This document shows, piece after piece, positions 5,108 through 62,622 of a DNA stretch of 64,000 nt (the first letter of the stretch is position 1; every line of letters begins with the position of its first letter). The notes beneath the pieces were generated by a model. It saw only the letters and a program-made list of their open reading frames with translations, searched no databases and had not been told where the DNA came from. The DNA comes from an uncultured Candidatus Rokubacteria bacterium. Lineage in GTDB: Bacteria > JAUVQV01 > DATDCY01. The position numbers and the translations under genes were made by a program. The stretch is taken from the NCBI GenBank assembly GCA_963699775.1, contig CAVOVE010000015.1, forward strand, positions 687,588 through 751,587, written 5' to 3'.

Positions 5108-6357
5108 TCAACCCCGGCTCGTGACGCTGAACCGACTCGCCGTCAGGCGCAGCCCGTCGGCGAGGTTCGACAACTCCTGCGCCGAACCGGCCATCTGCTC
5201 GAGCGAGGCGGTGAGCTCCTGGGTGGCGGCCGAGGCCTCCTCGGTCGCCGCCGCGTTGTCCTCGGCGATGCGGGAAATCTCGTCGGTCGCCTTGACCATC
5301 TCCCCGGACCCGCGCTCCTGCTCGGCCGCGAGGGTGAAGATCTCCCGGACGCCCTGGGCGACCTCGACCGTCCCGTGGATGATCCCCTCGAGCGAACCGC
5401 GCACGGTGTCGATCACTTCGCGACCCTCGCGGATCTCCAGGGTTCCGGACTCCATCGAGACCAGCACCTTCGCGCTCTCCTGACCGATCTCGCCGACCAG
5501 CGCGGCGATCTCATCGGCCGAGCGGCGCGTCGCCTCCGAGAGCTTGCGGATCTCGTCGGCGACGACCGAGAACCCGCGTCCGTATTCGCCGGCGTGCGCC
5601 GCCTCGATGGCGGCGTTGAGGGCGAGCAGGTTGGTCTGCTGGGAGATCCCGGTGATGACGTCGACGATCTTGCCGATCTTCTGGGTCCGCTCGCCGAAAC
5701 CGTGCACCAGTTCGGCCGAGCGCTCCATGTTCTCGAAGACCTGGCGCATCTTCTCCAGGGCGGCGGCGGCGGCGGTGCCCCCGCGCTGGGCGGTCTCCCC
5801 GGCGACGGCGCTGGCCTCGGCCGCGCGTCCGGGCCCGCTCCGCGATGAGCGTCACCGCCGCCGCGCCCTCCCGGATCCGGCCGGCCGCGCGCTCGACGAC
5901 CTCGACCTGCATCTCCGCCCCCTTGGCGATGTGCTCGGTGGCCGAGGCGATCTCCTCGCCGCTGGTGCTCATCTGCTGCGTGGTCGCCGAAAATCCCGCC
6001 GCCGAACCGCTGAGCGTTCCGGCGCTGGCCTGGATCTGGCTCACGACCATCCGCAACTGCTCGAGCATCGTCTGGAACGCCTCGGCGAGAGCGACCAGCT
6101 CGCGGTCGCCGCCGGCGTGAACCTCCTTGGTCAGATCGCCGGCGGCGATCTCGCGCGTCACCGTCGCAAGGTTGGAGATGCCGGCCGTGATCGAGCGCGA
6201 GATGAAGTAGCCGAGGCTCATCCCCACGACGATCCCGACGACCGTCGAGAGCAGGAGACGCTGCAACTCATCGCGCACCACGTAATAGAAAATCGCGTTC
6301 ACCGCGACGATCGACAGGATGACCAGCAGAAAACTCAGGATAAGTTTGGCCCTCATA
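5108..6357 (-). CDS. methyl-accepting chemotaxis protein (TM-HAMP N-terminus plus MA signalling domain); frame change near 5830
   Basis: N-terminus MRAKLILSFLLVILSIVAVN...HAMP in ORF 5511..7526 frame; conserved signalling domain LLALNAAIEAAHAGEYGRGFSVVADEIRKLSE in ORF 5108..5749; ATGA start/stop overlap with cheR. Confidence 0.8.
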
Positions 6358-7156
6358 ACCTCCCCCTTGACGCTGCGCACGGCGCGTGCGCCCCACAGAC
6401 GAGAGCCGGTCCGCTGTCGCGGCGGCGGCGGTAGATGCGTTCGCGCGGGTCCACGACCTCGAAAATCTCCCGGCCCGCGCCGACGAAGACCTCGGTCCTG
6501 CCGAGGACCAGATACCCGCCCGGCCGCAGGCCGCGCGCAAAGCGCTCGAGCACCGCCTCCTGCCCCGGGCGGTCGAGATAGATCAACAGGTTGCGGCAGA
6601 GGATCAGATCGTACTCGCCGTCGGGCAAATCCATCAGGATGTCGCCCCGGCAAAAGCGCACCATCCGTCGGATCTCGGGCACGAGGCGCCAGCGGTCCCC
6701 GTGGGTGAAAAACCGCTCGCGGCGGGCGGGCTCGAGGTCGGCGACCTGGTTCCAGCCGTACTCGCCGGCCTTGGCTTCGGCCAGGACCCGGTCGTCGATG
6801 TCGATGGCCTGGATCTGAACGTCCCAGCCGCGGCGCGCCTCGCCGAGGTATTCGTGCACCAGCATCGCCAGACTGTAGGGCTCTTCCCCCCGCGAGCAGC
6901 CGACACTCCAGAAGCGCGGATGCCGCGAGGCGCCCGGGGCGAAAAGCTGCGGGAACACCTCGCGACGGATCGCCTCGAAGGTGCTGGGGTTGCGCATGAA
7001 GGAACTCACGTGAATGGTCAGGCAGCGCAGCAGCCGGTCCATCTCCCCCTGCTCGCGCGCGAGATATTCCAGATAGTCGCTGAAGTGTTCGTGGTGAGTG
7101 GCGCGCACGCGAATGGCGACCCGCCGCTCGATGAAGCGCTCCTTGTAGGACTCCAT
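6353..7156 (-). CDS. cheR: chemotaxis protein methyltransferase CheR
   Basis: 267 aa; N-terminal CheR helix domain (FSDYLEYLAREQGEMDRLLRCLTIHVSSFMRNP) and SAM-MTase fold (VGCSRGEEPYSLAM). Confidence 0.85.
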   Translation of the reverse strand: MESYKERFIERRVAIRVRATHHEHFSDYLEYLAREQGEMDRLLRCLTIHVSSFMRNPSTFEAIRREVFPQLFAPGASRHPRFWSVGCSRGEEPYSLAMLVHEYLGEARRGWDVQIQAIDIDDRVLAEAKAGEYGWNQVADLEPARRERFFTHGDRWRLVPEIRRMVRFCRGDILMDLPDGEYDLILCRNLLIYLDRPGQEAVLERFARGLRPGGYLVLGRTEVFVGAGREIFEVVDPRERIYRRRRDSGPALVCGAHAPCAASRGRL

Positions 7157-7316
7157 GTCGAAGCCGGTGCGGTCGTGGACCAGGCGGCGCAGGTGCGCGT
7201 AGCCCTCGGTCCCGGCCGGGATTCCCGGTCTCTGCAGCAGCCACGGCTTCCATGTGCATCCCTCCGTGTCGGCATGATAGCAGAGGACCGCGGGATTTCA
7301 ATGTTTCCGCGCTACA

Positions 7317-8396
7317 ATGCCGCCATGCGCGCCCGCAGAAAACGTGCCGTTGACGCGACTCGGGGAGGAGGCCGTCGTGCGCATCTTCGGCGGCGCGCCG
7401 CGGCGGAGCGGCGCCGGGCGCGAACCCGCCGTCGTCGTCGGTCCCGGCGACGATGCCGCGGTGGTGCGACCCCCGCGCGGCGCCCGGCTGCTGCTCACGA
7501 CGGACCTGCTCGCCGAGGATGTTCACTTCAGGCGCAGCTGGGCCCGCCCCGCCGACCTGGGGTGGAAACTTGCCGCCGTGAACGCCAGCGACATCGCGGC
7601 CATGGGCGGCCGGCCGCTCTGGGCCCTGCTCTCGCTGGCCTTGCCGCCGGGACTCGACCGGTCGTTCGCGGAAGGTCTGAGCCGAGGTCTGCGGGCCGCC
7701 TCACGCCGCCTCGGCTTCACGCTTGTCGGCGGAGATACCTGCGCCTCCGCTGACAGGATCTTCCTCTCCCTCGCTCTTGCCGGCGTGGCCGGCCCGCGAC
7801 TTCTTACTCGGGACTGCGCTCAGCCTGGCGACCAGATCTTCGTGACCGGACACCTTGGCGCATCGACGCTGGGCCTGGCGGCGCTCGAGCGACACGGCGC
7901 CGCCCCCCTCCCCGCCCCGCTGCGGATCTGCGCGCGGCGGCACCTGCATCCCGAACCGCGCCTGGCATTCGGTGCCGCTCTCGCGAGAACGGGACTCGCG
8001 CGCGCGGCGCTGGATGTGAGCGACGGCATCTCGCGCGACCTCGGCCGGCTGTGCGCGGCCAGCCGCGTCGGAGCCGAGGTTCAGGTCGACCGGTTGCCGG
8101 TGCTGTCTTCGACGCCCGCGCGGCGCGCTTGCTCGGACCGCGACCCGCACGCGGCGGCACTGCACGGCGGGGAGGAGTACGAATTGCTCTTCACGGCACG
8201 GCCGGACGACGAGCGGCGGGTGTCCGCGCTCGGGAAGCGCCTCGGGCTGCGGGTGACGGCGATCGGGCGAATCCTTCCCCGCCGCGCCGGCGTGTCGGTC
8301 GTCGGCGCCGACGGGAAGCAGGAAACCTCTCGCTCCCGCCGGCTGGGAGCACTTCTCCCGGTAACGGGCGTCGAAAAGGCCTCGCTCACTCTTTGA
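7317..8396 (+). CDS. thiL: thiamine-monophosphate kinase
   Basis: AIR-synthase-related fold; DDAAVV, LLTTDLLAEDVHF, KLAAVNASDIAAMGGRP motifs. Confidence 0.8.
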   Translation: MPPCAPAENVPLTRLGEEAVVRIFGGAPRRSGAGREPAVVVGPGDDAAVVRPPRGARLLLTTDLLAEDVHFRRSWARPADLGWKLAAVNASDIAAMGGRPLWALLSLALPPGLDRSFAEGLSRGLRAASRRLGFTLVGGDTCASADRIFLSLALAGVAGPRLLTRDCAQPGDQIFVTGHLGASTLGLAALERHGAAPLPAPLRICARRHLHPEPRLAFGAALARTGLARAALDVSDGISRDLGRLCAASRVGAEVQVDRLPVLSSTPARRACSDRDPHAAALHGGEEYELLFTARPDDERRVSALGKRLGLRVTAIGRILPRRAGVSVVGADGKQETSRSRRLGALLPVTGVEKASLTL

Positions 8397-9797: not shown

Positions 9798-11929
9798 TCC
9801 TCGCTATGGCAGTCCAACTGGTCCAGCCGGCGATACGCACCCGGCGCCCGCTCATTTCGTCTTGAGGGTCCAGACGCCGTCCCAGTTCTCCGGCGGCGGA
9901 TCTGTCATGAAGGCGCGGGCGCGCTCGATCAGCACCTGCGACGGGCCGTCGCCGGGCGTCGCGCGCAGGATCGCCCCGGCCAGCTCGATCGTCCGCTGCC
10001 ACTGCCGCCCCTGGTAGGCGGCGAGCGCCTCGGCGTAGGCGGCGGCCAGCGCGCGCAGCGCCTCGGTCTCCGACCCCGCCGGCGCCAGCACCTCGTAGAT
10101 GGCGACCGGCTCCGCCTTGCCCTTGACGCGGACGCGATCCAGCAGCCGGCCGAAGGCCGCCCCGGGCGCCGCCTGCCAGGTGCTCTCGGAGGCGATGACG
10201 AGCGTCCCGTAGACCTTGTTGATCCCCTCGAGACGCGAGGCCTGGTTCACGGTGTCGCCGATGGCGGTGTAGTCGAAGCGGTCGCGCGAACCCATGTTGC
10301 CGACGACGCAGGTCCCGCTGTTCAGGCCGATGCGGGTCACCAGCCGCGGCCCGCCGCGCGCGACGAGGTCGTCGCAGAACGGGCGCAGCCGCTCCTGGCA
10401 GGCCAGCGCCGCGAGCAGGCCGCGCCGCGCGTGGTCCGGCTGCGGCAGCGGCGCCCCCCAGAAGGCCATCACCGAGTCGCCGATGTATTTGTCGATCGTG
10501 CCGTCCAGGCCCGGTCCGGTGATGACATCCGCCATCAGGGTCGTGTACTCGTTGAGGAAGGCCACGAGCTCCTGGGGGTTCATCCCCTCGGAGATCGACG
10601 TGAACCCCTGCAGGTCGGAGAAGAAGAGCGTCACGTCGCGCCGCTCGCCGCCGAGCGCGAGCAGCTTGGGGTCGGCGAGGATCTGCTTGACGACCTTCGG
10701 CGAAACGTAGCGCGCGAAGGCCCCGGCGATGAAGCGCTTGTCCTTGCCCTCCGTCGTGTAGCGCCTGACCGCGGCGCCGATCACCGCCAGGAGGATCGAC
10801 ACGCCGAGCGTCCACGGATCGAGGAACCAGCCGGCGCGGTAGGCGGCGACCAGGATCGCGAGGATCGCCCCGACGACGCCGGCGACCGCGCCGGCGCCGG
10901 CGGCCACCGGCAGCAGGATGACCGCGGCGGCGACGAGCGACGCCGCCGCGAGGGCGAGGCCCGCGGAAACGACCGGCGGCGCCGCGGCGAGAAAATCGCC
11001 GTTGAGGAGGTTGTCGATCACGGCGACGTGCACCTCGAACCCCGGCGCGGTGGCGGCCAGCGGCGTCGGCTTCAGGTCGAGGAGCCCCGGCGCGGTGGAG
11101 CCGATGATCACGTACGCGCCGCGGAAGACCTCGGCCGGGACCGCGGGCGTCCTCCCTTCGGCGGCGGCGAGCGCGGAGGTGATGACCTCGGCCGCCGAGT
11201 AGCGCCGGTAGTCGCGGCGCTGGCCGTGAAAGCGCACGAGCAGCGAGCCCTGGTCGTCGAGCGGAACGGTCAACCCGCCGAGCCGGACCCGCCCGGGCTC
11301 GAAGCGCGCCGTCTGCGCGCCGGCGGCGAACGGGGCGAAGCGCGAGGCTGGGGACCAGCCGCCCCTCGAACAGCACGCCGACCGGCATCCGGCGCACGAC
11401 GCCGTCGGCGTCCGGTCGCAGGGTCACCGAGCCGATCCCGGCGGCGGCGGCGCTGATCGCCGGCAGCGGCGGGGAGACGGCCGAGCGCCGCAGCGCCGCG
11501 CGGCGGCGCGCCCTCGACGTCGAGGCTCAGCCGCGGGTCGAGCGGACCGCCGGCGGCCGCGGCGCTCGAGAAGGCGGCCGCCAGGAACACGCGGCCGTTC
11601 CTGCGGATGCCCGCCGCGAACTCCGCGTCCGTCTCCTCCCCCCACGGCGAGAGGTTGTTGAAGAGGACGTCGAAGAGCACCGCCGCCGCGCCGCCGCGCG
11701 CGCAGTGCTCGAGCAGCGGGTTGTAGAGACTGCGCGGCCACGGGTAGGCGATGTTGTCGCGCTCGAAATGATCGAGGCTCGCCTGGTCGACCTCGATCAG
11801 CACGATCCGCTTGTCGGCGCGCTCCGGGTCGGCGAGCAGGCGCCGCTGCACGTCGCCGGCCTTCAGGGCGAGCAGGTCGACCCCCGGGACCCGGCCGAGC
11901 CCGAGGGCGAGCGCGACCGCGAGCAGCGG

Positions 11930-13360
<1,431 letters not shown>

Positions 13361-17201: not shown

Positions 17202-17294
17202 GTTCCCGTGCGGGCTGCGGGGTCCTGTCGCTGCGGACCTCCGCCGTGCTCGCTTCGCTCGCGCGACGGAGACTCCTCATCGCGCCACGGGAAC
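17202..17294 (-). repeat. MITE-like repeat, copy A (93 bp; terminal inverted repeats GTTCCCGTGCG / CGCCACGGGAAC; internal hairpin GGTCC-N9-GGACC); ATG of the family replaced by GCG
   Basis: near-identical to segments at approx. 50391-50516, 53288-53410 and (inverted) 54893-55094; lies 3 nt upstream of the emrB start and inside the unterminated emrA reading frame. Confidence 0.7.
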
Positions 17295-21613: not shown

Positions 21614-23884
<2,271 letters not shown>

Positions 23885-23894
23885 GCGCCCGGAG

Positions 23895-25472
23895 ATGCCG
23901 TCGTTTCTCCTGCCCGCCGGCCTCGGGATTCCCGACCTTCTCGAGCGCCTGGCCCCGCTCGGCACCCTCGATGCGGGCGCGGACGAGCACGAGCCGCCAC
24001 ACGCTTCTGGACACGCTTCGATTGGCGCCTGCACCGGGCCGGGTGGTCCCTGGAGCGCGTCGACGACGGCAGCCGGGGTGGCTGTGCCTGCGCCCGCTGG
24101 ACGGGGGCCCGCCGCTCGCCCGCCACGCGGGGCCGACGATCCGCTTCGCCCGCGAACTGCCGCCCGGAGCGCTGCGCGAGCGTCTCGAGCCGGTGCTTCA
24201 CCCGCGGGCGCTGCTCGCGATCGCCGTCGTCGGACGTGACCAGAGACCCCGATCGCCGTACGTTCCGCGCGCGGTCTCACGACGGCCCGGCTCGTGCTCA
24301 GCTCAATGCGCGTCGCCCCCCCCGACGCCGATCCGTCACTGCCGTGGCTGCCGTTGCGACCCGTGCTCACGGTCCCTCCCGGCCCCCGCGCGGCCGCCGT
24401 GAGCGCGCTGTGCGCCGCGTGGCCCGACTGCGAGCCGGCGCCCCCCGACCGCATCGCCGCGCTTCTCGAACCCCTGGGGCGATCGCCGCGCGACTATTCG
24501 GGCAAGATCAAGGTGCCGCTCGACGGCGCGCTGCCGGCGCGCGACGCCGCCCGGGCGCTGCTGCTGCACCTGCTGGGCACGCTGGAGGCGAACCTGGCCG
24601 GCGTTCGCGACGACCTCGACCCCGAGTTCCTGCACGACCTGCGCGTCGCGGTGCGGCGCACCCGCTCCGCGCTCGGGCAGATCAAGCGCGTTCTGCCGCC
24701 GGCGACCACCGCCCGCTTCGCCCGCGAGTTCGCCTGGCTGCAGGAGCTGACCGGCCCGGCCCGCGACCTCGACGTCTTCGGGCTCGAGCTGCCCGCACTG
24801 GGCAGTCTCCTGCCGCCGCGGTCGCGCCGCAGCCTCGGTCCTCTCGCGCGCCTGCTGGAGCGGAAGCGGCGATCCGCCTACGCCGAGCTGGCGCGCGAGC
24901 TGGACACGCCGCGGTTCGCCCGGCTGCTCGCCGACTGGCGCGCCTTTCTGCTCCAGCCGACGCCGCAGCGGCCCTCCGGCGCCCCGAACGCGCTGCGGCC
25001 GTGCGCCGAACTGGCCGCGGAGCGCATCGGCACGCTGCACCGGCGCGCCCTGCGCGAGGGCGCCGCGATCGACGCCGCCTCGCCGGCCGGCGATCTCCAC
25101 GAGTTGCGCAAGACCTGCAAGAAACTGCGGTATCTCGTCGAGTTCTTCCATTCGCTCCTGGACCGGGACGCAGCGGAGGCGGCCATCGCCTCGCTCAAGG
25201 GGCTGCAGGACACGCTCGGGGGCTTCCAGGATCTCCAGGTCCAGGCCGACGCGCTGCTCGGGTACGCCCGCGAACTGGCGCGGGAGGGCCAGGCGCCGCC
25301 GCCGACCTACATCGCGCTGGGCATGCTCGTCGAGCGCCTGCGCGAGGAGCAGGCCCGGGCGCGATCCGAGTTCGCCGCGCGGTTCGGCGAGTTTTCGCGA
25401 AAATCAAGCCGCAAGGACTGGAAGCGGCTGCTCGCCGCGCGCGAGGCGGGCTGCGCGGACGCAGAGGGATGA
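23895..25472 (+). CDS. CHAD-domain protein (polyphosphate-granule-associated family); N-terminal region frame-ambiguous
   Basis: CHAD helices FLHDLRVAVRRTRSALGQIKRVL..FAWLQELTGPARDLDV..LHELRKTCKKLRYLVEFF in ORF 24294..25472; plausible N-terminal pieces in 23895 and 22351 frames. Confidence 0.7.
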
Positions 25473-27573: not shown

Positions 27574-28842
<1,269 letters not shown>

Positions 28843-31081: not shown

Positions 31082-31151
31082 ACCCCGTCATCACGACAGC
31101 GCGCGTACCCTACGAAAAATACAACGGAATGTCAAGATCGGCACCAGAGGA

Positions 31152-31230
31152 CCCGGCTCAGCCGCCGCCAAACTGCCGCAGCACACAACCGGCAATCAGC
31201 AGACCGACCCCCCAGGGCCGGAAAACATGC
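31152..31230 (-). repeat. approx. 75-bp duplicated copy of the 3' end of the small membrane protein gene at 33549..33782 (direct repeat partner at 33545-33620)
   Basis: approx. 90% nucleotide identity (gacccggctcagccg...cagcagaccgac.ccccagggccggaaaacat); the copy here would encode ...VFRPWGVGLLIAGCVLRQFGGG*. Confidence 0.7.
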
Positions 31231-31259: not shown

Positions 31260-32806
31260 CTCGCTTCTTTTCCTTCTCGCCGGCATCCATCTCGCCGAGA
31301 TACTTCGGCAACTCCAGACCCGACATCTTCGCGACCTCCTGCAGCGGCGGCAGGCTCTTGATCAGGCCGGCGAGAAAGTTGGCGGTGGACGAACCGTCCT
31401 TGCCGTCCTTGCCGCCGCCCGAATCCCAGACCGTGACCTTGTCGATCTTGATGTTCTTGATCGCCTCGACCTGGAGCGTGACCAGCTGCTCGAGTCTTCT
31501 CGACGAGCAGGAACGTGGCGGCCGCCTTGGCGTCCCCGGCGCAGCTCTTGACCAGCTCCTGGTAGCCGGCGGCCTTGCTGTCGAGCACCTGGCGGACGCC
31601 TTCGCCTCGGCCTCGTACTTGACCAGGATCGCGTCGGCCGAGCCCTTCGCCTCCCGGCGGACCTTCTCGGCCTCGGCCTCGGCGGAGATCTCGATCTTCT
31701 TCTTCTCGATCTCCTCGCTTGACGACCTCTTCCGCGGTCAGCCGCTCCTGCTCCGCCAGGTACTGGGCCTTCTGGATCTGGACCTGCGCCTCGCGCTTGG
31801 CGACCTCGCCGCGCCTGAGGGCCTCGGCCTGCTTGACCGCGTAGCTCGGCTTCGACCGCCGCGATGTCGGCCTTGGCGAGGTTCTCGCCCGTCGACCGCC
31901 GACGCCTCCTGCTGCTGGACGAAGACGCGCCGGTCGGCTTCGGCCTGCTTCTTGCCCTTGTCCGACTCGGCGACGTTCTGGGCGACCTTGATCTCCTTCT
32001 CCCGGTTCGCCTCGGCCTCGCCGATCGTCGCGGCGGACTCCTGCTGCTGGACGAAGACCCGGCGGTCGGCCTCGGCCTTCTTGCGCCCCTTCTCCGACTC
32101 GGCGACGTTCTGGGCGACCTTGATCTCCTTCTCCCGGTTCGCCACGGCCTCGCCGATCGCGCCGAGTTTCTCCTGCTGCGACAACGTCGACCCGCGCCTG
32201 GTTGATCGCCTCGGAGGCGGCCTTCTTGCCGATGCTCTCGATGTAGTCCGACTCGTCGGTGATGTCGGTGATGTTCACGTTGATCAGGTAGAGGCCGATC
32301 TTGTTCAGCTCGGGCTCCACGTTCTTGCGGATCGACTCCAGGAAGCTCTCGCGGTCCTGGTTGATCTGCTCGATCGTCAGCGAGGCGACCGTGAGACGCA
32401 GCTGGCCGAAGATGATCTCCTTCGCCATGTCCTCGATCTTCGCCGAGGTCAGGTTGAGCAGCCGCTCGGCGGCGTTGTTCATGATCGCCTTGTCGGTGCT
32501 GATGCCGACGGTGAAGGTGCTCGGCACGTTGATGCGGATGTTCTGCAGCGAGAGCGCATTCTGCAGCGGGATGCTGATGGTCATCGGCGTCAGGCTCATG
32601 TAGGCGTAGTCCTGGATCAGCGGCCAGACGAGCGTGCCGCCGCCGTGGATGCAGTTGGCCGACTGCCCCTCGCCGACCTTGCCGTAGATCACGAGGATCA
32701 TGTCCGAGGGGCAGCGCTTGTAGCGCGACGCGAGGAAGACGACGGTCGAGACGATCAGGATGACGAGCGCGGTGGCCGGGAAGATCCAGAGCGAGATGCC
32801 GAACAT
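31260..32806 (-). CDS. flotillin-like SPFH/band-7 protein (FloT/YqiK type) with internal 44-aa tandem repeat; two frame changes
   Basis: N-terminal TM plus SPFH domain (ORF 31196..32806), EA-rich coiled coil with duplicated IGEAxANREKEIKVAQNVAESxKGxKxAEADRRVFVQQQE (ORF 31738..32184), C-terminus ...EMDAGEKEKKRGA* in third frame. Confidence 0.85.
31906..32159 (-). repeat. near-perfect tandem duplication of 132-bp period (approx. 122-bp identical unit plus 10-bp spacer) inside flotillin coiled-coil region
   Basis: unit ctcctgctgctggacgaagac...ggcctcgccgatcg occurs twice with period 132 bp. Confidence 0.85.
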
Positions 32807-33406: not shown

Positions 33407-33548
33407 GAACGCCCCCTTCCCGTGATCAAGAAACCTCTGCTTGGCCCGACCGAGAACGGCAGCACGCCCGCACCATCGCCCCGTGTCGTGCTGAACCCTG
33501 CGCTGGGCGGATTCTCATGCCGCCGGAGCCCAAAGTCAAGGACCCGGC

Positions 33549-33782
33549 TCAGCCGTCGCCGAACCGCCGCAGCACAGAACCGGCAATCAGCAGACCGACT
33601 CCCCAGGGCCGGAAAACATAATAGTAGACGGAGCCGACCGCGAGCAGACCCGGAAGATTCATGTCGTGCGGGTGGAAGATGGCGTCGTAGGCGAAGGAGA
33701 CCGCGAAGAGCACCGGGATCAAAGCCAGCCAGAGGAGCGCCAGCCGGAACATCCAGCGCCCGAGGGCGCCAACCCCGCTCAT
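33549..33782 (-). CDS. small 2-TM membrane protein (77 aa), function unknown; its 3' end is duplicated downstream of flotillin
   Basis: ORF 33549..33782, hydrophobic helices; first gene of the small-protein/nfeD/flotillin module. Confidence 0.5.
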   Translation of the reverse strand: MSGVGALGRWMFRLALLWLALIPVLFAVSFAYDAIFHPHDMNLPGLLAVGSVYYYVFRPWGVGLLIAGSVLRRFGDG

Positions 33783-46667: not shown

Positions 46668-46864
46668 GTTCGTCCCCTCCTTCGTGGTTGCGGCCTGCCA
46701 GACGCGTGGCGAATCGTTGATCTCGCTCCCCGCATGATTCCTTGGTGTCAAAGATACGCCTCATGAACGGAATATGCACCTTGAGACCAGCCTCCCCGTT
46801 CGTGCCGACCCGCGCGCTGCAAACTCTCGCACTCCCGCGCCAGGCTTCCAGCCGCCCCCTGCCG

Positions 46865-48451
46865 CTAGGGCGCCATCCGCGTCAGCACGATGTCCGGATT
46901 GCGCTCGGAGAAGTAGCGGCATTCCCACTCGCCGGCGAAGAGGATCACCAGGTTGCCGTGCACGTCGTGCGCGAGCTGGCAGCCGCCCATCAGCGGCTTT
47001 TCGGCGACGACGGCCGCGCTCTCGGCGGCGACCCAGCGGACGGTCTTCCAGGACATCAGTTCCAGCCGGGAATCCGCCCCGTACTCGGCAAGAAGCCGGT
47101 GCTGCAGCACTTCGAACTGCAGCGGACCCACCGCGCCGAGCAGCGGCAGGCGCTGGGCGGCGTCCTTCAGCGCGAAGGTCTGCACCACCCCTTCCTGAAG
47201 CAGGTGCTCCAGCCCGGCCCGGAAACGCTTCGACTTCGCCGCGTTGGGACAGTGCAGAAAGGCGAAGTGCTCCGGCATGAAGCGCGGGATGCTCTGGTGG
47301 ACGACCGACGGGTCTTCGGTCAGGGTGTCGCCGATCAGGAACTCGGCGTGGCCGACGAGCCCGACGACGTCCCCGGCGTAGGCCTCGTTGACGATCTCGC
47401 GCTCCTGCCCGAAGAGCTTGTGCGAGCTCGAGAGCCGGACGCTGGTCGCCGGTGCGCGGGTGGAAGACCTTCATGTCGCGCTCGAAGCGGCCGGAGCAGA
47501 CGCGCATGAAGGCGATCTGGTCCCGGTGCCGCGGGTCCATGTTCGACTGGATCTTGAAGACGAACCCCGAAAAGCGCGGGTCGTCCGGGGCGATCTCGCC
47601 CTCCAGCAGCTTGCGCGGCCCGGGCGGCGGGGCGTAGTCGAGGAAACCGTCGAGCAGCAGCTGCACGCCGAAGTTGTTGACCGCGCTGCCGAAGAAGACG
47701 GCGGTCATGTCGCCGCTGCAGGACGGCCGCGTGGTCGAAGGTCTCGCCCGCCCCGTCGAGCACGGAGACCTCCTCGAGCACCTTCCGGTACGAGCGCCGC
47801 GTCGAGCCGCTCGGCGACCGCGTCGTCGGCCAGATCGAGCACGGAGACCGGCGTCCGGTAGGCGCCCCCGGGCACCCGCTCGAAGAACGAGACCAGCTTG
47901 CGGCGGCGATCGAACACGCCCCGGAAGTCCGGGCCGGTCCCGAGGGGCCAGTTCACGGGGTAGACGTGCAGCTGCAGCGTGCGCTCGATCTCGTCGAGCA
48001 GGGCCAGCGGCTCGTGCGACGGCCGGTCGAGCTTGTTGATGAACGTGAAGATCGGGATCTGCCGGTTGCGGCAGATTTCAAAGAGCTTGAGCGTCTGGCT
48101 CTCGATGCCCTTGGCGGCGTCGAGCACCATGACGACGGCGTCGACGGCCATCAGCACGCGGTAGGTGTCCTCCGAGAAATCCTTGTGGCCGGGGGTGTCC
48201 AGCAGGTTGATGCAGAAGTCCCGGTATTCGAACTGGAGCACGGTCGAGCTGACCGAGATGCCGCGCTTGCGCTCGAGCTCCATCCAGTCGGAGGTCGTGT
48301 TTCTCTGGTTTTTCCGGGCCGTCACCGACCCGGCCAGGTGCACGGCGCCGCCGTACAGCAGCAGCTTTTCCGTCAGGGTGGTCTTGCCGGCGTCGGGGTG
48401 CGAGATGATCGCGAACGTCCGCCGCCGGGAAACCTCTTTCATCAAATCCAC
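46865..48451 (-). CDS. prfC: peptide chain release factor 3; two frame changes
   Basis: [39 protein letters not shown] GTPase motifs (ORF 47705..48451); middle and C-terminal domains in ORFs 46761..47708 and 46865..47278. Confidence 0.85.
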
Positions 48452-48541
48452 GCGTCACCTTCCGTTCATCATCGAATATCTGTGCGAATGTTCGCCAACC
48501 AGCTGCGCAGGCGAGTGCGGGAATTTACCTCATCCGGGGAT

Positions 48542-49553
48542 TCATAACAACCGGCCGGCAAGGGTCACCCCGGGACCGCGCGGGCCGTAGAGGCGACGTG
48601 CCAACTCGGCGAGCCAGCGGCCCCGCGCGTCGTCGCGAAGCTCGAGCCGCCCCGCCCGCGCACCGGCGAGCAGCAGCGAAATCTCCTCGCCCGGGGTTCC
48701 GAGACGCCGCAGCGTCTCAAAGAGCGCGGCGTGCTCGGGGCTCGCGCCCGTGCTCTCGGTCCACTCCCGGGCGGCCGCGGCAAACTCCGGGTCAGGCGGA
48801 AGGGGGACCTCCTCGGACGCCGCGGGGCCGAGGCCGTTGATCGCGTCGATCACCCGCTCCTTGCGCTCCTTGTACGGGCAGTGCCGCAAGTTCCGCCGGC
48901 AGGATCGCCGCGCCGATGGTGATCCGCTGGCCGCCCATGCCGACCGGGTACTCGAGTTTGGCCGTCAGCGGCTCGACCGGCAGCCCGCCCGCGAAGCGGA
49001 CCGGGACCACGGGCGCGCCCGTGGCGATGGCCATGTCGAGAAAGGCCCCGCTCATCTTCTGCACCGGGGCGCGGCAGGTGAGCGCCCGCGTCCCCTCCAC
49101 GTGGATCATCACGGACTTGCCGCCGCCGGCGATCTCGCGCGCCAGCACGCCGATGATCCGCGGCAGCTCCTCGCGGTTGCTGCGGTCGAAGTAGGTGATC
49201 ACCCCCGGGTCGTGCGCCCCCGGCCAGGCGAAGGCGTGGCGGATCAGGTTCCCGAGCCAGGTCGTGCGGTGCTCGATCTTGGCCAGGGTCACGGTGAGGA
49301 TCCCCGAGAGCGCCGAGGCGATCAGCGAGAAGAGGATCGACTCGATGCCGACCTGATGGTTCGCGAGGTAGAGGACGCCCTTCCCGCGCAGCGCGGCGAA
49401 GCCCGCGGGGTCCTCGAGGCGCACGCGCCGCACGAAGCGCCCGGCCAGACCGTAGTAGATGTCCTCGACGGGCCAGCGCCCGATCCGGTAGTAGTCGTCC
49501 CACCAGTCGCGAACCGGCGAGAGATCGAGAGTCGGCGGCCCGGCATCGCTCAC
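48542..49553 (-). CDS. 1-acyl-sn-glycerol-3-phosphate acyltransferase-like (AGPAT/PlsC family); probable C-terminal domain or partner of Pfa3
   Basis: LYLANHQVGIESIL (HxxxxD/E block), VMIHVEGTRA, FLDMAIATGAPVVPVRFAG; C-terminal 100 aa in another frame (ORF 48542..48889). Confidence 0.75.
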
Positions 49554-49559
49554 CGAGAC

Positions 49560-50433
49560 CGCCGCCGCGCGTGCGCTCGACGGTGAGCGGCCAAACCGTG
49601 AGCGGCTCGGACGGGCAGCGTGCGAGCACCAGGCTGGGGCAACCGCCAGGGGAATCCGGGCTCACGGCGGCCGAGCCCGTGTCCGCCACGACGCTCGACG
49701 GGTGCACCGCGGCTCGTGCCGCAACGTGCTCCTTCACGGCGATCTGGCCGAGCAGGTCGCCCTCGGCCGCGTAGGCCTGAGCGAGCGTGCCGGGGAGCCA
49801 GTCGCTGGCGCGGACGTCGGCGTCCGCGAGGTGCGTCGTCCCGCTCCTGTCGCTGGAGAGTCGCAGCCCGGGCACAAAGCGACGGTCGCGCAGGAAGGCG
49901 CGCCGATCGCGCGGCGGCGCGGACCCGAGCGCTCCCTTGGGGAACAGCACCTCCACCAGGTCGAGGCTCGCGATCACCCGGCCGCTGGCGATCGCCTGGA
50001 TCTGAAATCGCGGGAACCGGGGGTCGCCGTCGAAACCGGCGAAGCGCGTCTCGCAGCGCACCTCGCCTGCAGCCGGGAGCGGCGCGAACAGCCGCAGCGA
50101 CACGATGCGGTGCGGGTAGGCGACCTGGTCGGCGGGGATCTCCGGGCTCCAGTCGCAGAGTCGGTCGTGGGGAATGCCGTGGGTCAGCGCGTCGAGCAGC
50201 GCCTCGTGGAGCAGACCGCGCGGCTCGCCGCCCCCGGCGGCGTCGAGGAGCGAGGAGGAGGCGCCGGGGACGAGCTTGAGGGAGCGCAGCAGTTGGAAGG
50301 ACGGTCCGTGAAAGAGGGTCCCGGACTCGTAGGGATCCGGCGACGGGGTGGCGTTGGACGGCGGATCCCAAGGAACATCGAGCGCGCATTGTTCCCGTTC
50401 GGGCTGCGGGGTCCTGTCGCTGCGGACCTCCAT
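49560..50433 (-). CDS. PKS-type dehydratase C-terminal half (LFHGPSFQ motif) initiated from the repeat-borne ATG; probably continuous with the AGPAT domain
   Basis: MEVRSDRTPQP-EREQCALDVPWDPPSNATPSPDPYESGTLFHGPSFQLLRSLKLVPGASSSLLDAAGG...; no HxxxGxxxxP half downstream of the repeat. Confidence 0.5.
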
Positions 50434-50516
50434 GGGCTTCGCTTCGCTCACCCCCTGGAGACCTCCCCTCCGCGCCACCCCTTCGCCCAGCGCGTCCTCT
50501 GGGCAGTGACGGGGAA
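50391..50516 (-). repeat. MITE-like repeat, copy B (126 bp; TIRs GTTCCCGTTCGGG / TGACGGGGAA; contains ATG-GAGGTCCGCAGCGACAGGACCCCGCAGCC)
   Basis: same family as copy A; lies between the triple-DH gene and the DH'-AGPAT gene. Confidence 0.75.
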
Positions 50517-50529
50517 GTCCTCGTGGCTG

Positions 50530-53332
50530 CCAATCATGGAGGTTTCGTGTTCGGGGGCGAGACGCACCCGGCCCGTGGCAACGGGTTCGAAGCGGGAGAG
50601 GGATTCACTCGCGGCGTCGCGCCAGGCGAGCAGGGTCACGTCGAAGACGCCCTCCCCCGCCGGAGCAACCTCCGTCGTGAGGCGCAGCGGACCGGTGACC
50701 GGGACCCAGCGCAGCGCGCGGGCGTCTTCCACGGCCACGACCCGCATCCCGGGCGCCCGACGTACGGCAGCCCGCGCCAGGCGGTCGACCATCGACATCA
50801 GCGGCAGGGCCGGCACCGTCCAGGTCGGGCGATGGTCCTGGAGCCAGGTGTCGACGTCGGGATCGAGCATCTCTTCGCCGTCCGCAGCGCCCCCGCCGCC
50901 CTTCCCCCTTCGCCAGAGGGGGATCGCGCACGACCCGCATCGCCAAGCCCCGGGCCTCGTAGATTTTCGTGCCGTCCACCCAGAGCGAGGCGTCCGCGAC
51001 CGCGAGCGGGCCGCGGTCGTCCTCCCCGGTGCGCACCAGGTCCAGGAGCGTTGTCACCCGGCGGTTGCGCGGCAGCACCTGTCCCCGATACTTCCAGGAG
51101 TGCTGTTCGCCGAGGGCCAGCGGTTCGAACCGCGCCGCGCCGCCCCTGCTCTCGGCCATCCCCTGGTGGATCATCGCGAACTGCAGCAGTTGGAGCATCG
51201 CCTCCAGGCCGAGCGAGCCGGGCTGCACCGGGTCCTGGAAGAAGTGCGCCTTGAAGAACCAGGCCGCGGGGTCGACGTCGGTCTCGGCGCGATACCGTCC
51301 GAGCCCGGCCGGACCGCCGGCAGGCCAGATGCCGGTCACGCGGTCGAGCATCAGCAGCGGCGCGGTTTCCATCCGGGGGCCATCCCCTGCCCCGCCCTCC
51401 GCCAGGTCTGCAGATCGACCGACTCCGAGCGCACCTCGTCGAGCGCTTCGCGTTCCCCCGCAGCGGCCGGGAGGCCGACCTGTCGGGCCAGGGCTTCCGC
51501 GGGAAAGTAGCCGAAGACGGTCTTGAGGTCGTACACCGTCCGCTCGCCGACGCTGCAGACGACGTCGAAGCTTTCGATGAGCATCCCCGCCGACCGCGAG
51601 ATCCGCGTCAGCACCGCGCGGGTGCGCAGCCTGCCGTCGCCGGGGAAGACCTCGGCGAGCAGGCGGCCGTCGCCGTCGAGGTTGCGGAAACTCAGGTCGC
51701 GCTCGGACGTCAGCGGACTGCCGGCCCAGGTCGCCAGCCAGCCGCAGGGCTGCAGCGCGGCCTCGAGCAGGACGGCAAAGGGCATCGTGCGCGCGCCGTT
51801 CGCGGCGAAATACCAGGCGTCGGCGGGGATGTCGTACTCGACCTCGACCGCGCTGCCCTCGCGCATCGCCCCCATCTCGCCCTCGAGGCGCGTGACGCGC
51901 GACATGAACTGGTAGGGCGGGCCGGGGAGGCGCGCCAGCCGGCGCACGCCGTCGAAGGCGCGGTAGGCGGGGCCGAACGCCTGCCGACGGCCGCCCCCAG
52001 GCGCAGGCCAGCAGCGAGCGCCCGTCGAAGCGCAGGTCGCCCTCGGACGCGGCGGGTTCCCCGTCGACGATGCCGTCCAGCAGTTCGGGCTTCGAGTCCA
52101 GCGGCCACCCGGGGACGAGGCGCAGGCCCATGCGGCGGCAGTGGAAGGCCTTGAGCCCGTCGACCGTGCACAGGATGTCGGCGTAGAGCGTCGGCTCCGG
52201 TCCGGCGATCAGCTCCTCGACGAAGATTTCGTACACGAGTTCGCGCGAGGCCGGGGTGACCTGGCCGCGGCAGCGCATCAGGTAGGGCTCATCCGGCACC
52301 GGCTCGAAGCGCCAGCCGTCCCGCTCCAGCGTGAAGCCCAACGCGGCCAGGTAGACCGCCATCGCCTGCAGGCCGCCCTCGAACATCAGGGTCCCGGGCA
52401 TGCAGGGGTCGTTCGTGAAGTGTCCCTCGAAGAACCAGTCGCCCGGGTCGATGCGATCCACGGCGCGCAGATAGCCTCGTCCCCAGGGCCCGCCCCCGAC
52501 GGCGATCTCCGTCACCTCTTCGAGCAGCAGCAGCCGGCCGCCGGGCAGATTCGGCGTGCGGGTGTGAGTCGCAGCCCCCTCGAAGCCGGGACCGAAACAC
52601 GCGTCGGCGCGCCCGGCCGCGAAGGCCTCGAGCTGCGCGCGGGAGAGCCGCGACCGGCCCGGCGGACACCGGCGGCGGATCGACCCGCGCCCCGTCCCGC
52701 GGCTCGAGCGGTCGCCGGGTCCCAGAGCACGCCCGCCGACCCGGCGAGTTCCTCGTCGGTGAAGAAGCCGGCCTGCCCGCCCCGCACGGTGAGGCGGGGG
52801 ATACCCGGCGACGGTGCAGGTGGAGTGGAAGAAGAAGAGACGGACCGCCCCCTGCTGCGCGTGGCCGTCGACGCCGATCTCGTAGCGCAGGGTTTCGCCG
52901 GCGACGGGGAGCCCGCCGTGGTAGGTCAGCTCGCAGCCGAGCAGCCGGTAGACGCGCTCCCCGCGGTTGAGGGCGTCGACGCCGAGCCAGGAGACGAGCA
53001 GCAGGTCGGCCTGCCCGGCCTCGATCATGATCCCCGCGGGCATGCGGTTGTCGTGCAGGTACCAGGCGCCCGCCGCGACGTCGGTCTCCGTCCAGACGGT
53101 GCCGGTGCCCAGCGAGAGGGGTTCGGCCTCCAGGCGCACGACGCGATCGGCGAGCAGCAGCGGCGGTTCGGGCATGCGGACGCGCCGGGTGCAGGCCGTC
53201 CTGGTCGGCGAATGCGGGACCGAAGATTTGGGAGAGTCGTCCGCTGGCGTGGATTTCGAGGGCGCGCCTGTCGAACACAATACCGTCCGTTGACCGTGCA
53301 GGCTGCGGGGTCCTGTCGCTGCGGACCTCCAT
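50530..53332 (-). CDS. Pfa3-like segment: three FabA-like hot-dog dehydratase folds; starts with the repeat-encoded MEVRSDRTPQP
   Basis: FDRRALEIHASGRLSQIFGPAF; MPAGIMIEAGQADLLLVSWLGVDALNRGERVYRLLG; DPGDWFFEGHFTNDPCMPGTLMFEGGLQAMA; DVDPAAWFFKAHFFQDPVQPGSLGLEAMLQLL; frame change near 53200. Confidence 0.75.
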
Positions 53333-53410
53333 CGTGCTCGCTTCGCTCCGCCGCGGAGACCTCCCCTCCGCGCCACCCCTCGCCGGAAGCGTCTCCAGAA
53401 GGAGCGTGTT
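53288..53410 (-). repeat. MITE-like repeat, copy C (degenerate ends; possible 7-bp CGTGCAG flanking duplication)
   Basis: same core as copies A/B; supplies ATG and first 10 codons of the triple-DH gene. Confidence 0.65.
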
Positions 53411-53419
53411 CTCGTGCAG

Positions 53420-54944
53420 TCAGCAGCGTCGCCGCCGCACGTTCGCGCAATTCCAGGAATTGGCGGTGCGCGGCAGCCTGATCATCGAGGAACGCGCGGT
53501 GCACGCGCGTCGCCATGGCGACCTGGGCCGCGATCTGCGCCAGGGCCTCCTGGGCGTGGCTGCCGGCGCGCACGGCGGACGGCGCCGCAGGGCGGGGCGC
53601 GGCCGGCAGCCCCGGGGACATCTTCCTCGCACACGCGCCAGCCGAGGAGCAGGCGGCCATCGTCGCTGTCGACGAGGAGTCGCTCCGCGCCCGGCGATGG
53701 CAAGCGCCATCTGCCGCAGCGACCGGCGCCAGTGCCGGAGCCGGCGGCTGCGTGATCGGCGCCACAGGCAGCGGCGGAAGCACGGGAGGGGGGCGGTGCG
53801 CCTGGTATTCCGCCGCCGGCTCCGCGCTGGACGCCGCTGCCGGGAACGCGACGGCGCACCTGTCCGCGGCGCGCACGCTGACGCGGACGCGCTGCCCGCC
53901 GAGGGCCCGGATATCGAGATCGGCGCGACGCTCGCCCGTCCACTCCGCGCCGCCGGGGTGGCGCCCGGCGGCGCAGGCGACCACCGCCGCCAGCACGCGC
54001 ACCAGCCCGAACGCGGCGTGGGCGCGTCCGAAGCGAGCGGCGACCTGGGACATCCCCGAAATGCTTCGGCCGCATCGCAGCTCGACCGCTCAGCGTCGCC
54101 GGCATCGCTCACCTCATCGATCAGCGCGAGGACGCGGTCGCCGTCGCGACGCGCGTCCGACAGGCGCTTGAGAACCATGACGACGGCGCGCGTCGCCGGA
54201 CGGGCCGGGCAGGCCGAGCTCGAGCGCCGCGGCCTCGTGCACCGGGTCGCAGGAGAAATCGGCCGCCCCCGCCAGCGCCAGATCGAGTTCCCCGGCGCGC
54301 AGGGCGCGCAACGCCGCCTGCAGCGCTCTGACCCCCGAGAGTTCCTCGGCCGACATCGTGAAGCCCGGCCCCGCCAGGTCGAACTGGACATTCAGGCGGT
54401 TTGCCGGGAGATTGGGCATGGTTCCGAGAACCCCGGCGCCGGTAAGCGCCGGAGACAGGATTTCGGCGGCGCGGCGAATCCAGAATTCGTCCGTGACGCC
54501 CCAGGCCGCGGCGATGTCCGGCAGGCGCCAGCGAGCCCCGTAGCGGGCCACGGCGGGATCGCACCCGACGCCGATCATCACGCCGGAGCGCTCGGACGGC
54601 GGCAGGGAAACGCCGGCCAGCGCTTCACGCGCCGCCGCCATGGTCCAGATCTGCTGCGGCAGAGCGGCGGCCAGATCGCTCGGCGGGAAGCGCGTGCCGA
54701 CCACCGGGAGCGAAATGGTCGTGGCGCAATGTGTCGTCGGGTCGGCAACGGCAAAGAGCGCGGTCGCGAAATCCGCCACCGACCGCCCTGCGCCGACCGC
54801 GGCGCCGATCCCGACCACAGCCACCGCGTGCTCTGAGGATATATTTGAAATCAGTCCCGCCGCCACCGGAACACCGGGAGCTGGCACGGTGCGAAGGGGT
54901 GGCGCGGAGGGGAGGTCTCCGTCGACGGAACGAAGTGAGCACAA
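53420..54944 (-). CDS. Pfa3-like chain-length-factor (CLF, KS-like without active-site Cys) segment; N-terminal approx. 15 codons (SLRSVDGDLPSAPPL) encoded by repeat copy D
   Basis: HAVAVVGIGAAVG, MPNLPANRLNVQFDLAGPGF, GELDLALAGAADFSCDPVHEAAALELG (ORF 54114..54944); continuation in ORF 53420..54391. Confidence 0.7.
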
Positions 54945-55094
54945 TGAGGAAGAGCCAGCCTCGCTTCCCGGCGCGCGATCCGATCGCTGGTCGAACGAGA
55001 CCGTGGGCCCTCAAAGCAGGGAATTCCCAGTTGACAAGAGAGCGAATGGTCGAGTTGGGTGGATGGTCCGGAGCGACAGGACCCCGGAGCCCGC
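54893..55094 (+). repeat. MITE-like repeat, copy D (inverted relative to copies A-C, approx. 200 bp with approx. 115-bp internal insertion)
   Basis: arms GAAGGGGTGGCGCGGAGGGGAGGTCTCC and GGTCCGGAGCGACAGGACCCCGGAGCCCGCAC match the family; sits in the KS-CLF linker. Confidence 0.65.
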
Positions 55095-55099
55095 ACATT

Positions 55100-56400
55100 A
55101 TCCCCCGGTTCCTCTACGATCAGATGTGCGTTGGCGCCGCCGAACCCGAAAGCGCTCACGGCCGCCCGACGCACGTCGCGGCTCTCCCAGGGCTCCGCTT
55201 CGCGCAGCAGGCGCAGGGGCGTGCCCGCCGGCAGCGGCAGCGGGTCGTCGGCGTGAAGCGTCGGCGGCCTCACGCCGGCGGCCATGGCGCCGATGACCTT
55301 GAGCAGGCCGGCAATCCCCGCGGCGGTCACGGCGTGACCGAAGTTGGATTTGAGCGAACCGATGGGGAGGTCCGCGGCTCCCGCGAAAACGCGCGCCGAG
55401 CTGCGCACCTCGACGGCGTCCCCGACCGCCGTCCCGGTTGCGTGGCACTCGAGCAGCGAGATGTCGGCCGGGAGCAGCCCCGCCATCGCGTAGGCCGCCC
55501 GCATCGCGCGCTCCTGCCCCTCCTCGCTCGGCGCCAGCAGACCGCGGCCCCGCCCGTCGTTGGAGAGCCCGATGCCCCGGATCACCCCGAAAATCCGGTC
55601 GCCTGCGGCCTGGGCGTCCTCGAGGCGCTTGAGGGCGACGGCGCCCGCCCCTTCGGCCGGCAGCAGGCCGTCGGCCTCGCGGTGAAACGGCCGGCTGCGC
55701 CCGCTGCGGCTGAGCGCCTGCAGCGCGGTGAAGCCGACGTGGATGAACAGGTCGTCCGCGGCGTTGACCGCGCCCGCGAGCGCCACGTCGGCCCGGCGGT
55801 CGTGCAGCAAGATCGCACGCGAGCTTGATCGCGTAGAGCGAGGAGGCGCAGGCGGCGTCCAGCGCGAACGCGGGTCCCAGGCCGAGCGCCCGCGCGACGA
55901 GGTGGGCCGGCAGACCCGGACATGAAACGGTTGCTCGCATCGACCGGGCCGATCCCGGCGGCCGCGTCGGCGAGCCGGTGACCGAACCAGGCCCGTTCGG
56001 CGAATCGGGCAAACGCCGCCGACGGAAAGGAGAGATTGCCGAAGACCGCCGCCACGCGCGGCCCGCCCTCGACCCCGGCCTCGCGCAGCGCTTCCCGCGA
56101 CACGTGCAGCAGCCAGCGCGCCAGCGGATCGAACTGCTGCACCTGCTCCGCCGGCACCGCGAATCCCGAGGGGTCGAACACCGCATCGAAGCCCTCGACA
56201 TACCCGCCGCGATCGGTCCAGGCGGCGTCCGTGCCGGAGGAGCCGCCGGCGCAGACCAGCTCGCGCCGCAGCCGCCACCGACCCGGCGGGGCGCGGGATA
56301 CGAGGTCGGCACCCGTCGCGCACGCGCTCCCAGAGCGCGGCGGGATGCAACGCGCCGGGCAGCACGCAGGCCCGACCGACGATCGCGATCGGGGGAAAGT

Positions 56401-56410
<10 letters not shown>
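55100..56410 (-). CDS. Pfa3-like beta-ketoacyl synthase (KS) segment
   Basis: PIAIVGRACVLPGA; active-site ALDAACASSLYAIKLACDLA (ORF 55098..56312 frame); HATGTAVGDAVE, SNFGHAVTAAG (ORF 54851..57091 frame); approx. 10-nt overlap with pfa2 stop. Confidence 0.75.

Positions 56411-62622
<6,212 letters not shown>

Follow-up and report, generated by a model that had tools for sequence, protein, structure and literature searches.

The pfa3 locus and its dehydratase

The stretch analysed here, referred to as the window, comprises 64,000 nucleotides (nt) of an uncultured Candidatus Rokubacteria bacterium (assembly GCA_963699775.1, contig CAVOVE010000015.1, positions 687,588 to 751,587). According to Pfam and a frame map against the related locus L043, its minus strand carries, from ~57,100 to 48,540, a gene (pfa3) for a Pfa3-type subunit of a polyunsaturated fatty acid (PUFA) synthase, with the domain order KS, CLF, two pseudo-DH/FabA units, a further dehydratase (DH) and AGPAT. 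This further dehydratase is the subject of the present analysis: its N- and C-terminal parts (N-half and C-half) fall into two separate open reading frames (ORFs) on either side of a copy of a palindromic repeat, copy B.

The same order, with FabA-type dehydratases, a dehydratase of the polyketide synthase (PKS) type and a C-terminal AGPAT on one polypeptide, is found in L043. Its single 2131-aa ORF runs through the CLF, two FabA domains, the N-half, a long form of the repeat, the C-half and AGPAT up to the end of the AGPAT extension. Pfam reports ketoacyl-synt, four stretches of FabA and Acyltransferase in this ORF, with the dehydratase in between.

One PKS-type dehydratase in two halves

The upstream ORF (50870..50448, minus strand) encodes 140 aa ending in ...SMIGSHEDFPVTAQRTRWAKGWRGGEVSRG*, and its TGA stop (50450-50448) lies inside the repeat, as stated in a first-pass annotation made from the window sequence alone. 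That annotation suggested that the ORF may be the missing N-terminal half of a dehydratase, and our data agree: Pfam PKS_DH_N matches residues 3-80 (E = 1.3e-3, under the gathering score), pairwise alignment places the N-half on residues 24-129 of the homologue P0012, and the sequence is 80% identical to the L043 ORF (q1334-1448), with 83% identity to L043 in the N-half in the search of metagenome loci. The piece does not belong to the preceding FabA domain, which ends with ...GLAMRVV at 50949-50929. The catalytic His of the first hot dog sits in the motif (DHRPTW) DHRPTWTVPALP at 50837-50802, with its codon at 50834-50832. This motif of the HxxxGxxxxP type is a spacing variant, HxxxWxxPxxP, rather than the canonical form; the His and the downstream Pro are present, and in the alignment the motif is retained, with slight variation, in the contiguous homologues that span it.

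The downstream ORF opens within the repeat (GTG at 50478, in-frame ATG at 50433-50431) and reaches LFHGPSFQ (50316-50293) 39 residues past the ATG, or 54 past the GTG, close to the approx. 35 residues first reported. The C-half itself starts with VPWDPP... and carries the DxxxH motif LLDALTHGIPH at 50199-50167. The F, H, G and D of the second-hot-dog motifs are invariant in alignments A2 and A4, and the second hot dog bears both the catalytic Asp (DxxxQ/H) and GPxF. The homologue P0009 passes the Pfam thresholds for PKS_DH_N (29.9 bits) and PS-DH (26.9 bits), and also matches Acyltransferase. The two pieces are the His half and the Asp half of one PKS-type double-hot-dog dehydratase.

Homologues, fold and insertion site

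A search with the joined N- and C-half sequence returned 74 relatives. At 40-55% identity (P0009, P0012, P0017, P0019), one protein covers 88-99% of the joined query. Both halves lie in a single frame at 14 metagenome loci, 13 of which are without the repeat. In element-free homologues, ~20 residues lead from ...SRFEPVATG.V... to ...PDPY.SG.LFHGP.FQ; the window is ~55 residues longer at this place, and the segment missing from these homologues spans ~50543..50377.

In the AlphaFold2 model of P0012 (mean pLDDT 91.9), residues 22-125 form a first hot dog and 147-279 a second, with an unstructured connector between them (126-146) and an extra sub-domain behind (281-401). The model's best Foldseek matches in the PDB are the DH domains of CurH, CurJ, CurK, PpsC and MAS-like enzymes, with E ~1e-14 and target-normalised TM-scores of 0.64-0.74 against the Cur, PpsC and MAS DH structures. 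On this model, the domain is predicted to consist of two consecutive hot-dog sub-folds, the double hot dog that had been expected of the concatenated halves.

The insertion was mapped by pairwise alignment, in which the C-half of the window covers P0012 residues 126-401; multiple alignment A5 placed both window fragments poorly and was not used. The insertion point falls at P0012 residue ~129/130, right where the inter-hot-dog connector begins. No other place in the domain is as tolerant as this loop, and the inserted peptide probably forms a tolerated surface loop. The first-pass annotation had placed the repeat inside a domain and not in a linker; it does lie within the DH, but at a site that is itself a link, the loop leading from one hot-dog sub-fold to the other.

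The repeat is present at the DH site in all spanning relatives that are at least 70% identical (the window, L001-L004, L043 and P0075). It is absent from homologues at or below 64% identity (43-64%), where both halves form one frame with a short linker, and the earlier proposal that the insertion post-dates the gene is borne out. We propose that a hairpin repeat copy would have inserted into the loop between the hot-dog halves after the gene arose. In frame and translated, it would, together with a variable stretch next to it, add ~55 hydrophilic Gly/Arg/Pro-rich residues to the ~20-residue linker, and the His half and the Asp half would stay on a single polypeptide.

Structure and age of repeat copy B

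In copy B, the 80-nt core (50481-50402) is preceded by the left extension CAGAGGACGCGCTGGGCGAA and followed by the right end CGAACGGGAAC. The copy forms an imperfect palindrome whose apex is GCGAAGC (50446-50440), and its in-frame translation is EDALGEGVARRGGLQGVSEAKPMEVRSDRTPQPERE. The position given for the element in the first pass, 50517..50433, was approximate: the repeat is there, but its limits are ~50501..50390. The hypervariable linker between the last N-half strand and the repeat is without counterpart in element-free homologues, and the flanks of the repeat vary by indels among the window, L002, L003, L004 and L043.

At the DH site, the window, L001 and L004 share a core length of 80 nt; the core of L003 has 104 nt and that of L043 has 194 nt. 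Because these lengths differ by 24 and 114 nt, both divisible by three, the frame is conserved at this site. The dN/dS of the N-half is 0.19 against L043, and that of the C-half is 0.17-0.23, at dS values of 0.40-0.87 among repeat-bearing lineages. Both halves are under purifying selection in repeat carriers, which argues that the insertion did not inactivate the dehydratase and, probably, did not split it. An old insertion, it has been kept under selection and does not represent a disruption of recent date.

The window and L001 share 93% identity in the core, whereas flanking synonymous sites differ at 31%. In addition, different lineages hold different repeat sub-types and forms at the same DH site. 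The conservation of the core and the sub-type differences could each stem from gene conversion between copies or from selection acting on the hairpin.

The frame break and the quality of the assembly

The frame of the N-half is lost where the linker meets copy B, at a probable 1-nt deletion. The T missing at 50502/50501 is present in all four relatives examined at that spot (4/4). Inserting a single T there produces a continuous 447-aa ORF that passes through the N-half, TSMIGSHEDFPVTA, SEDALGEGVARRGGLQGVSEAKPMEVRSDRTPQPEREQ and the C-half. The restored sequence contains CTGCCTCAGAGG, and the repeat-encoded peptide of the corrected ORF, GEGVARRGGL...MEVRSDRTPQP, includes SEDALGEGVARRGGL. In this ORF the TGA at 50450-50448 is a stop in the shifted frame only, and the ATG at 50433-50431 is internal.

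Relatives show the repeat as part of an open frame. L043, with an insert of 67 residues, reads through its long repeat at the same site (...RVRLAPEYGTAVVDTSSVMIPVATSRELGGVGVARRGGLRRRNEVST...EEVRSDRTPQPEQDPYETGALFHGPSFQ...), the protein P0075 has the N-half and the repeat in one frame (...PSEDALGEGVARRGG..., ...RVRLAPEYEISTSAADMKSNPGPPSEDALGEGVARRGGLRRRTEGSTTEVRSDRTPQPAR), and in L001 and L003 the repeat is open in the frame of the C-half. A further read-through, in P0005, was discarded as evidence: it uses another frame, its copy is 79 nt long and one base short at the ATG, and the gene calls on its contig are fragmented.

Compared with the L043 ORF, 6.2 kb of the window contain no fewer than 10 switches of frame, and most high-scoring segment pairs abut in the query. 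The contexts of these switches lie mostly at or next to G/C runs and represent 1-nt indels with no loss of sequence. A frame plot of GC content at third codon positions (GC3) likewise reveals many frame changes within conserved domains of the window. The Gly-rich linker between FabA and the N-half holds another break at a G run (50925-50870). The AGPAT domain is frame-shifted relative to the DH (break at ~49573/49571, and a further one at 48879/48874), although DH and AGPAT are fused in frame in relatives, with P0001 and L043 continuous there.

In pfa3 (48540-57100), frame breaks occur approximately once per 0.6 kb; besides the one at the repeat, break points lie at about 52,805, 51,984, 51,403, 50,900, 49,572 and 48,876. 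Elsewhere in the window, prfC (46761-48451) is spread over three frames, and ppk1 (22351-24402), clpX (27677-28630) and rarA/mgsA (11270-13360) give truncated Pfam matches.

The relatives L002 and L004, which have "contig_N" names in the style of long-read assemblers, likewise have gene calls broken into fragments, those of trigger factor, prfC and KS among them. L012, another repeat-bearing relative, is a metagenome-assembled genome (MAG) of the Nanopore-based Microflora Danica catalogue (PMC12313526). The window itself appears to be a noisy, error-rich long-read assembly. The stop and restart in the window most likely reflect a single-base deletion introduced as an assembly error; the gene appears split because one T is missing in an assembly with at least 10 breaks in pfa3. 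We therefore favour, with a probability of about 0.8, one complete dehydratase with an in-frame repeat in the loop between its hot dogs, split in the deposited sequence by a one-base assembly error. The description of the split ORFs as half a DH, given in the first pass, is probably wrong in view of the missing T, of L043 reading on into the C-half and of P0075 reading through the repeat.

A true gene fission, with the TGA at 50450-50448 as stop, the ATG at 50433-50431 as restart and the halves reassembling non-covalently in the manner of FabA/FabZ-type dimers, is unlikely. Taken at face value, the deposited window does read as stop plus restart, the ATG stands in the C-half frame in both the window and L001, most repeat copies have this ATG, and hot-dog folds are able to dimerise from separate chains. 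However, fission depends on one missing base that every relative examined at the spot possesses, and the at least nine further frame breaks within conserved domains of the same gene are not all functional fissions. Inspection of the sequence before the ATG revealed no convincing Shine-Dalgarno motif, and where the ATG gives way to ACG, GCG or CTG, the opposite stem base changes along with it. We also considered the repeat as a cassette supplying a stop, a ribosome-binding site and a start, and rejected this idea because the repeat is read through in accurate contigs, its ATG changes together with the stem and a Shine-Dalgarno motif is lacking.

The same accumulation of breaks (10 or more changes of frame in 6.2 kb), together with four repeat copies or remnants in pfa genes, could be taken to mean that pfa3 is a decaying pseudogene in which the repeat is one of many real lesions. 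We consider this very unlikely. Similar breaks affect the unrelated housekeeping genes prfC, ppk1, clpX and rarA, and those in pfa3 are pure 1-nt shifts, mostly at or next to G/C runs; in-frame stops and deletions are absent. The dN/dS is ~0.2, also in comparisons with the window, and GC3 is maintained at 0.85-1.0 in the local coding frame.

Several points weigh against the favoured reading of one complete dehydratase with a one-base assembly error. The deposited window has a stop in the N-half frame, followed 16 nt on by an in-frame ATG. Fold and insertion site were taken from P0012, a 46-50% identical homologue serving as a stand-in for the model. The translation of the repeat is deduced from open frames. 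The sequencing platform of L043, P0075 and the window was deduced from contig naming and, for L043, also from its unbroken frame. Finally, the window sequence does not reach the Pfam gathering score for DH models (17.6-19.1 bits for PKS_DH_N against a cut-off of 27) and has no Pfam match to PS-DH. Because of these scores, its assignment to the PKS-type dehydratases rests on homology and fold.

For annotation, these results show how homopolymer indels in long-read metagenome assemblies yield false gene fissions and "half domains", and a repeat with an internal ATG lends such artefacts a biological look. Inference at the level of ORFs from this window calls for caution, since single-base shifts break conserved genes.

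The repeat family and its hairpin

Both conserved repeat ends occur 3-4 times in the window and in none of 100 shuffled sequences; in total, the window holds four repeat copies and one remnant. In the consensus built from 31 full copies, the 80-nt core GGGGTGGCGCGGAGGGGAGGTCTCC...GGAGGTCCGCAGCGACAGGACCCCGCAGCC stands between the left part ..GAGGAC...CTGGGCGRA and the right part yGCACGGGAACG; this consensus is stop-free in all six frames. The repeat exists in a short form of ~112 nt and a long form of ~200 nt. At the gathering threshold and at E<=1, Rfam matched neither form.

The hairpin apex has the form N-CGAAG-N' (GCGAAGC, CCGAAGG or ACGAAGT), and its closing pair is CG in 13, GC in 12, AU in 4 and GU in 2 of the 31 copies. 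Across these copies, 97.8% of hairpin cells are paired, versus 33-45% with slid partners. Cells changed on both sides number 25, versus 9.2 ± 2.6 after shuffling, and 0 of 500 shuffles reach the observed value. The folding energy of copy B alone is not significant (minimum free energy z-score -1.28), so the hairpin claim rests on covariation and not on energy. The internal ATG swaps with ACG, GCG and CTG, an A:U pair turning into G:C together with the opposite arm; this covariation implies that the hairpin, not a start-codon role, constrains the ATG. The oligonucleotide d(GCGAAGC) is an unusually stable DNA mini-hairpin, and a GCGAAGC apex would fit a single-stranded DNA intermediate.

A conserved 24-mer of the repeat was found at 38 loci in species-representative genomes, nearly all of them in two MAGs, one assigned to Candidatus Rokuibacteriota and one unclassified. 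The scan of this genome collection found the orthologous DH region at none of the 38 loci. Most of the ~45 full-length copies examined are intergenic and bear no relation to pfa genes. Other copies form the C-terminal tail of Maf proteins. In-frame copies lie in the gene for DNA polymerase III alpha, dnaE (L017:905-984), and in an ORF that goes from one uvrA-like sequence into a second (L036:7640-7719); both loci belong to short-read-style MAG assemblies, and in the frame of the repeat their flanks reach a GC3 of 0.82-0.93. For many copies in other genomes, the start coincides with a stop codon or directly follows one (TGAGGAC...), a hint of a preferred insertion target.

The distribution of copies also bears on the converse scenario, in which the repeat would be an ancestral linker of the dehydratase that was copied out elsewhere in the genome and not an insertion. 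Such an origin is in keeping with a site occupied in every close relative, but it is the least probable of the explanations considered, and we give it very little credence: the repeat is absent in all homologues below ~65% identity, the full-length copies are mostly intergenic and unrelated to pfa genes, and the hairpin covaries across copies, as in a mobile palindromic element.

A more speculative extension is that the repeat is selectively maintained as a translation-competent element that colonises the linkers of megaproteins and has a functional hairpin or peptide, or that in some lineages it truly splits the DH. The sites cited for colonisation are KS|CLF, CLF|DH, DH-N|DH-C, AT|ACP and dnaE, and selective maintenance is proposed because the core is so strongly conserved between the window and L001 relative to synonymous sites. 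We hold this extension to be doubtful, albeit somewhat less so than a fission of the gene. If it were true, the hairpin or peptide might have a role such as translational pausing between sub-domains, or serve as a flexible or docking linker.

Copy B resides within a catalytic domain, at the loop between its sub-folds, and has been kept there, with purifying selection, across a synonymous divergence of up to ~0.9. The case amounts to an experiment of nature on the places at which megasynthase domains accept 30-70 additional residues, of use in PUFA synthase and PKS engineering for picking split or tag sites in DH domains.

Other repeat copies and neighbouring features

The coordinates of the dehydratase, of the repeat copies and of neighbouring domains are collected in Table 1.

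Table 1. Features of the dehydratase region and repeat copies in the window.
Feature	Position	Strand	Basis or remark
N-terminal hot-dog half of PKS-type dehydratase ("DH4"-like)	50544..50876	-	Pfam, P0012 alignment, L043 identity
Hypervariable extra linker TSMIGSHEDFPVTA, from last N-half strand to repeat	50502..50543	-	alignment A2
Probable 1-nt deletion	50501..50502	-	window CACTGCC^CAGAGGAC vs CAyTGCCTCAGAGGAC in L002, L003, L004
Repeat copy B, short form, ~112 nt	50390..50501	-	boundaries from 31 copies
C-terminal hot-dog half and post-DH sub-domain	49573..50376	-	P0012 alignment, L043 q1525-1788
FabA-type dehydratase preceding the N-half	50923..51402	-	Pfam FabA 3.7e-82
AGPAT (1-acylglycerol-3-phosphate O-acyltransferase) domain	48879..49571	-	Pfam Acyltransferase E=3.6e-9
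Repeat copy, short form, CLF|first pseudo-DH	~53289-53391	-	same pfa3 gene
Repeat copy, inverted long form, ~200 nt, KS|CLF	54896-55096	+	same pfa3 gene
Repeat copy, intergenic	17206-17291	-	ends 8 nt before MFS transporter ATG (17198), after preceding ORF
Degenerate long-form remnant (…GGCGACAGGACTCCTCAG…)	59393-59526		pfa2-like gene

Sites matching the other pfa copies were seen in relatives. The KS|CLF site is read through in L004, where one gene call (5729-7756) covers the KS, the repeat and the CLF, and the CLF|DH site of L043 holds a 5'-truncated long form in frame. At the site that corresponds to the 59393-59526 remnant, L012 has a full inverted long copy, in frame and just upstream of an ACP domain (7105-7311).

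Between the CLF and the dehydratases, Pfam detected no AT2 in either L043 (L043:2-6394) or the window (53400-53800); the stretch consists of ~200 residues of Ala/Pro-rich linker. The pfa2-like gene contains a 189-nt repeat with a spacing of 349 nt (58782-59319) that resembles tandem ACP domains. Elsewhere, an ORF of the SPFH/Band7 family has an internal 132-nt tandem duplication (31897-32160, 89% identity) and is flanked by an 81-nt direct repeat (31148-31228 and 33539-33619, 94% identical, 2.4 kb apart) that has no relation to the hairpin repeat.

Comparison with known systems

As a fold, the dehydratase resembles the modular-PKS DH domains of CurH/J/K, PpsC and MAS-like enzymes (PDB 3kg7, 3kg8, 5tz7, 4ooc and 5bp4): it is predicted to share their double hot dog, with the His on the first hot dog and the Asp (DxxxH/Q) on the second. 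Unlike these domains, to which its sequence identity is just 12-22%, the homologue P0012 has the extra sub-domain of ~120 residues after hot dog 2 (281-401).

Within a PUFA synthase, the closest counterpart is DH4 of Minicystis rosea Pfa3, a PKS-type DH located between the FabA-like DH3 and AGPAT (PMC6731297), in which mutation of the active-site His alters the product spectrum (PMC6731297). Both domains occupy the same position in a KS-CLF-...-FabA DH x2-DH-AGPAT subunit, have a PKS-like rather than a FabA-like fold and carry the active-site His in the N-terminal half. They differ in the His motif, HxxxWxxPxxP in the window, and in the repeat-derived insert of the inter-hot-dog loop; moreover, AT2 was not detected by Pfam in this part of the subunit, and the host is not a myxobacterium. 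The window domain corresponds to M. rosea DH4 and is a predicted dehydratase conserved at dN/dS ~0.2.

The repeat shares several properties with miniature transposable elements with inverted repeats (MITEs), repetitive extragenic palindromic (REP) sequences and REPINs. Like them, it is a non-coding, multi-copy hairpin element whose ends are strongly conserved, its short forms resemble internal deletions of the longer form, and short-read assemblies break at its copies, L001 starting inside one and L003 47 nt upstream. The ends are conserved, yet they are not clear inverted repeats of each other. None of the relatives offered a closely related empty site from which target-site duplications could have been read. 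No partner transposase or RAYT turned up, in work that included no search aimed at transposases. REPs are extragenic by definition, whereas several copies of this repeat are intragenic and in frame.

A closer parallel is offered by the Rickettsia palindromic elements (RPEs), which insert in frame into unrelated genes at positions compatible with the protein fold (PMC10969869). Both are palindromic multi-copy repeats of ~100-150 bp, found between genes as well as in frame in unrelated coding genes, with stop-free in-frame copies seen here in L043 pfa3, L017, L036 and P0075. Both would provide extra peptide segments at fold-compatible positions, here in a PUFA synthase and in DnaE as read from their genes. 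The differences are that the host is Rokubacteria-type with 70% GC, the likeness being one of behaviour, with no kinship in sequence expected; that intragenic copies are a minority here, versus about half in some RPE families; and that long and short forms here share the same orthologous site. A search of the literature on Rokubacteria/Methylomirabilota with PUFA synthases or MITEs returned nothing relevant. The repeat probably works like an RPE, which we regard as its closest analogue, and we do not claim membership. Overall, the repeat appears to define an as yet undescribed family that resembles RPEs but occurs outside Rickettsia, in soil bacteria of the Rokubacteria type; from its open frames, it appears to be translated within essential as well as biosynthetic proteins.

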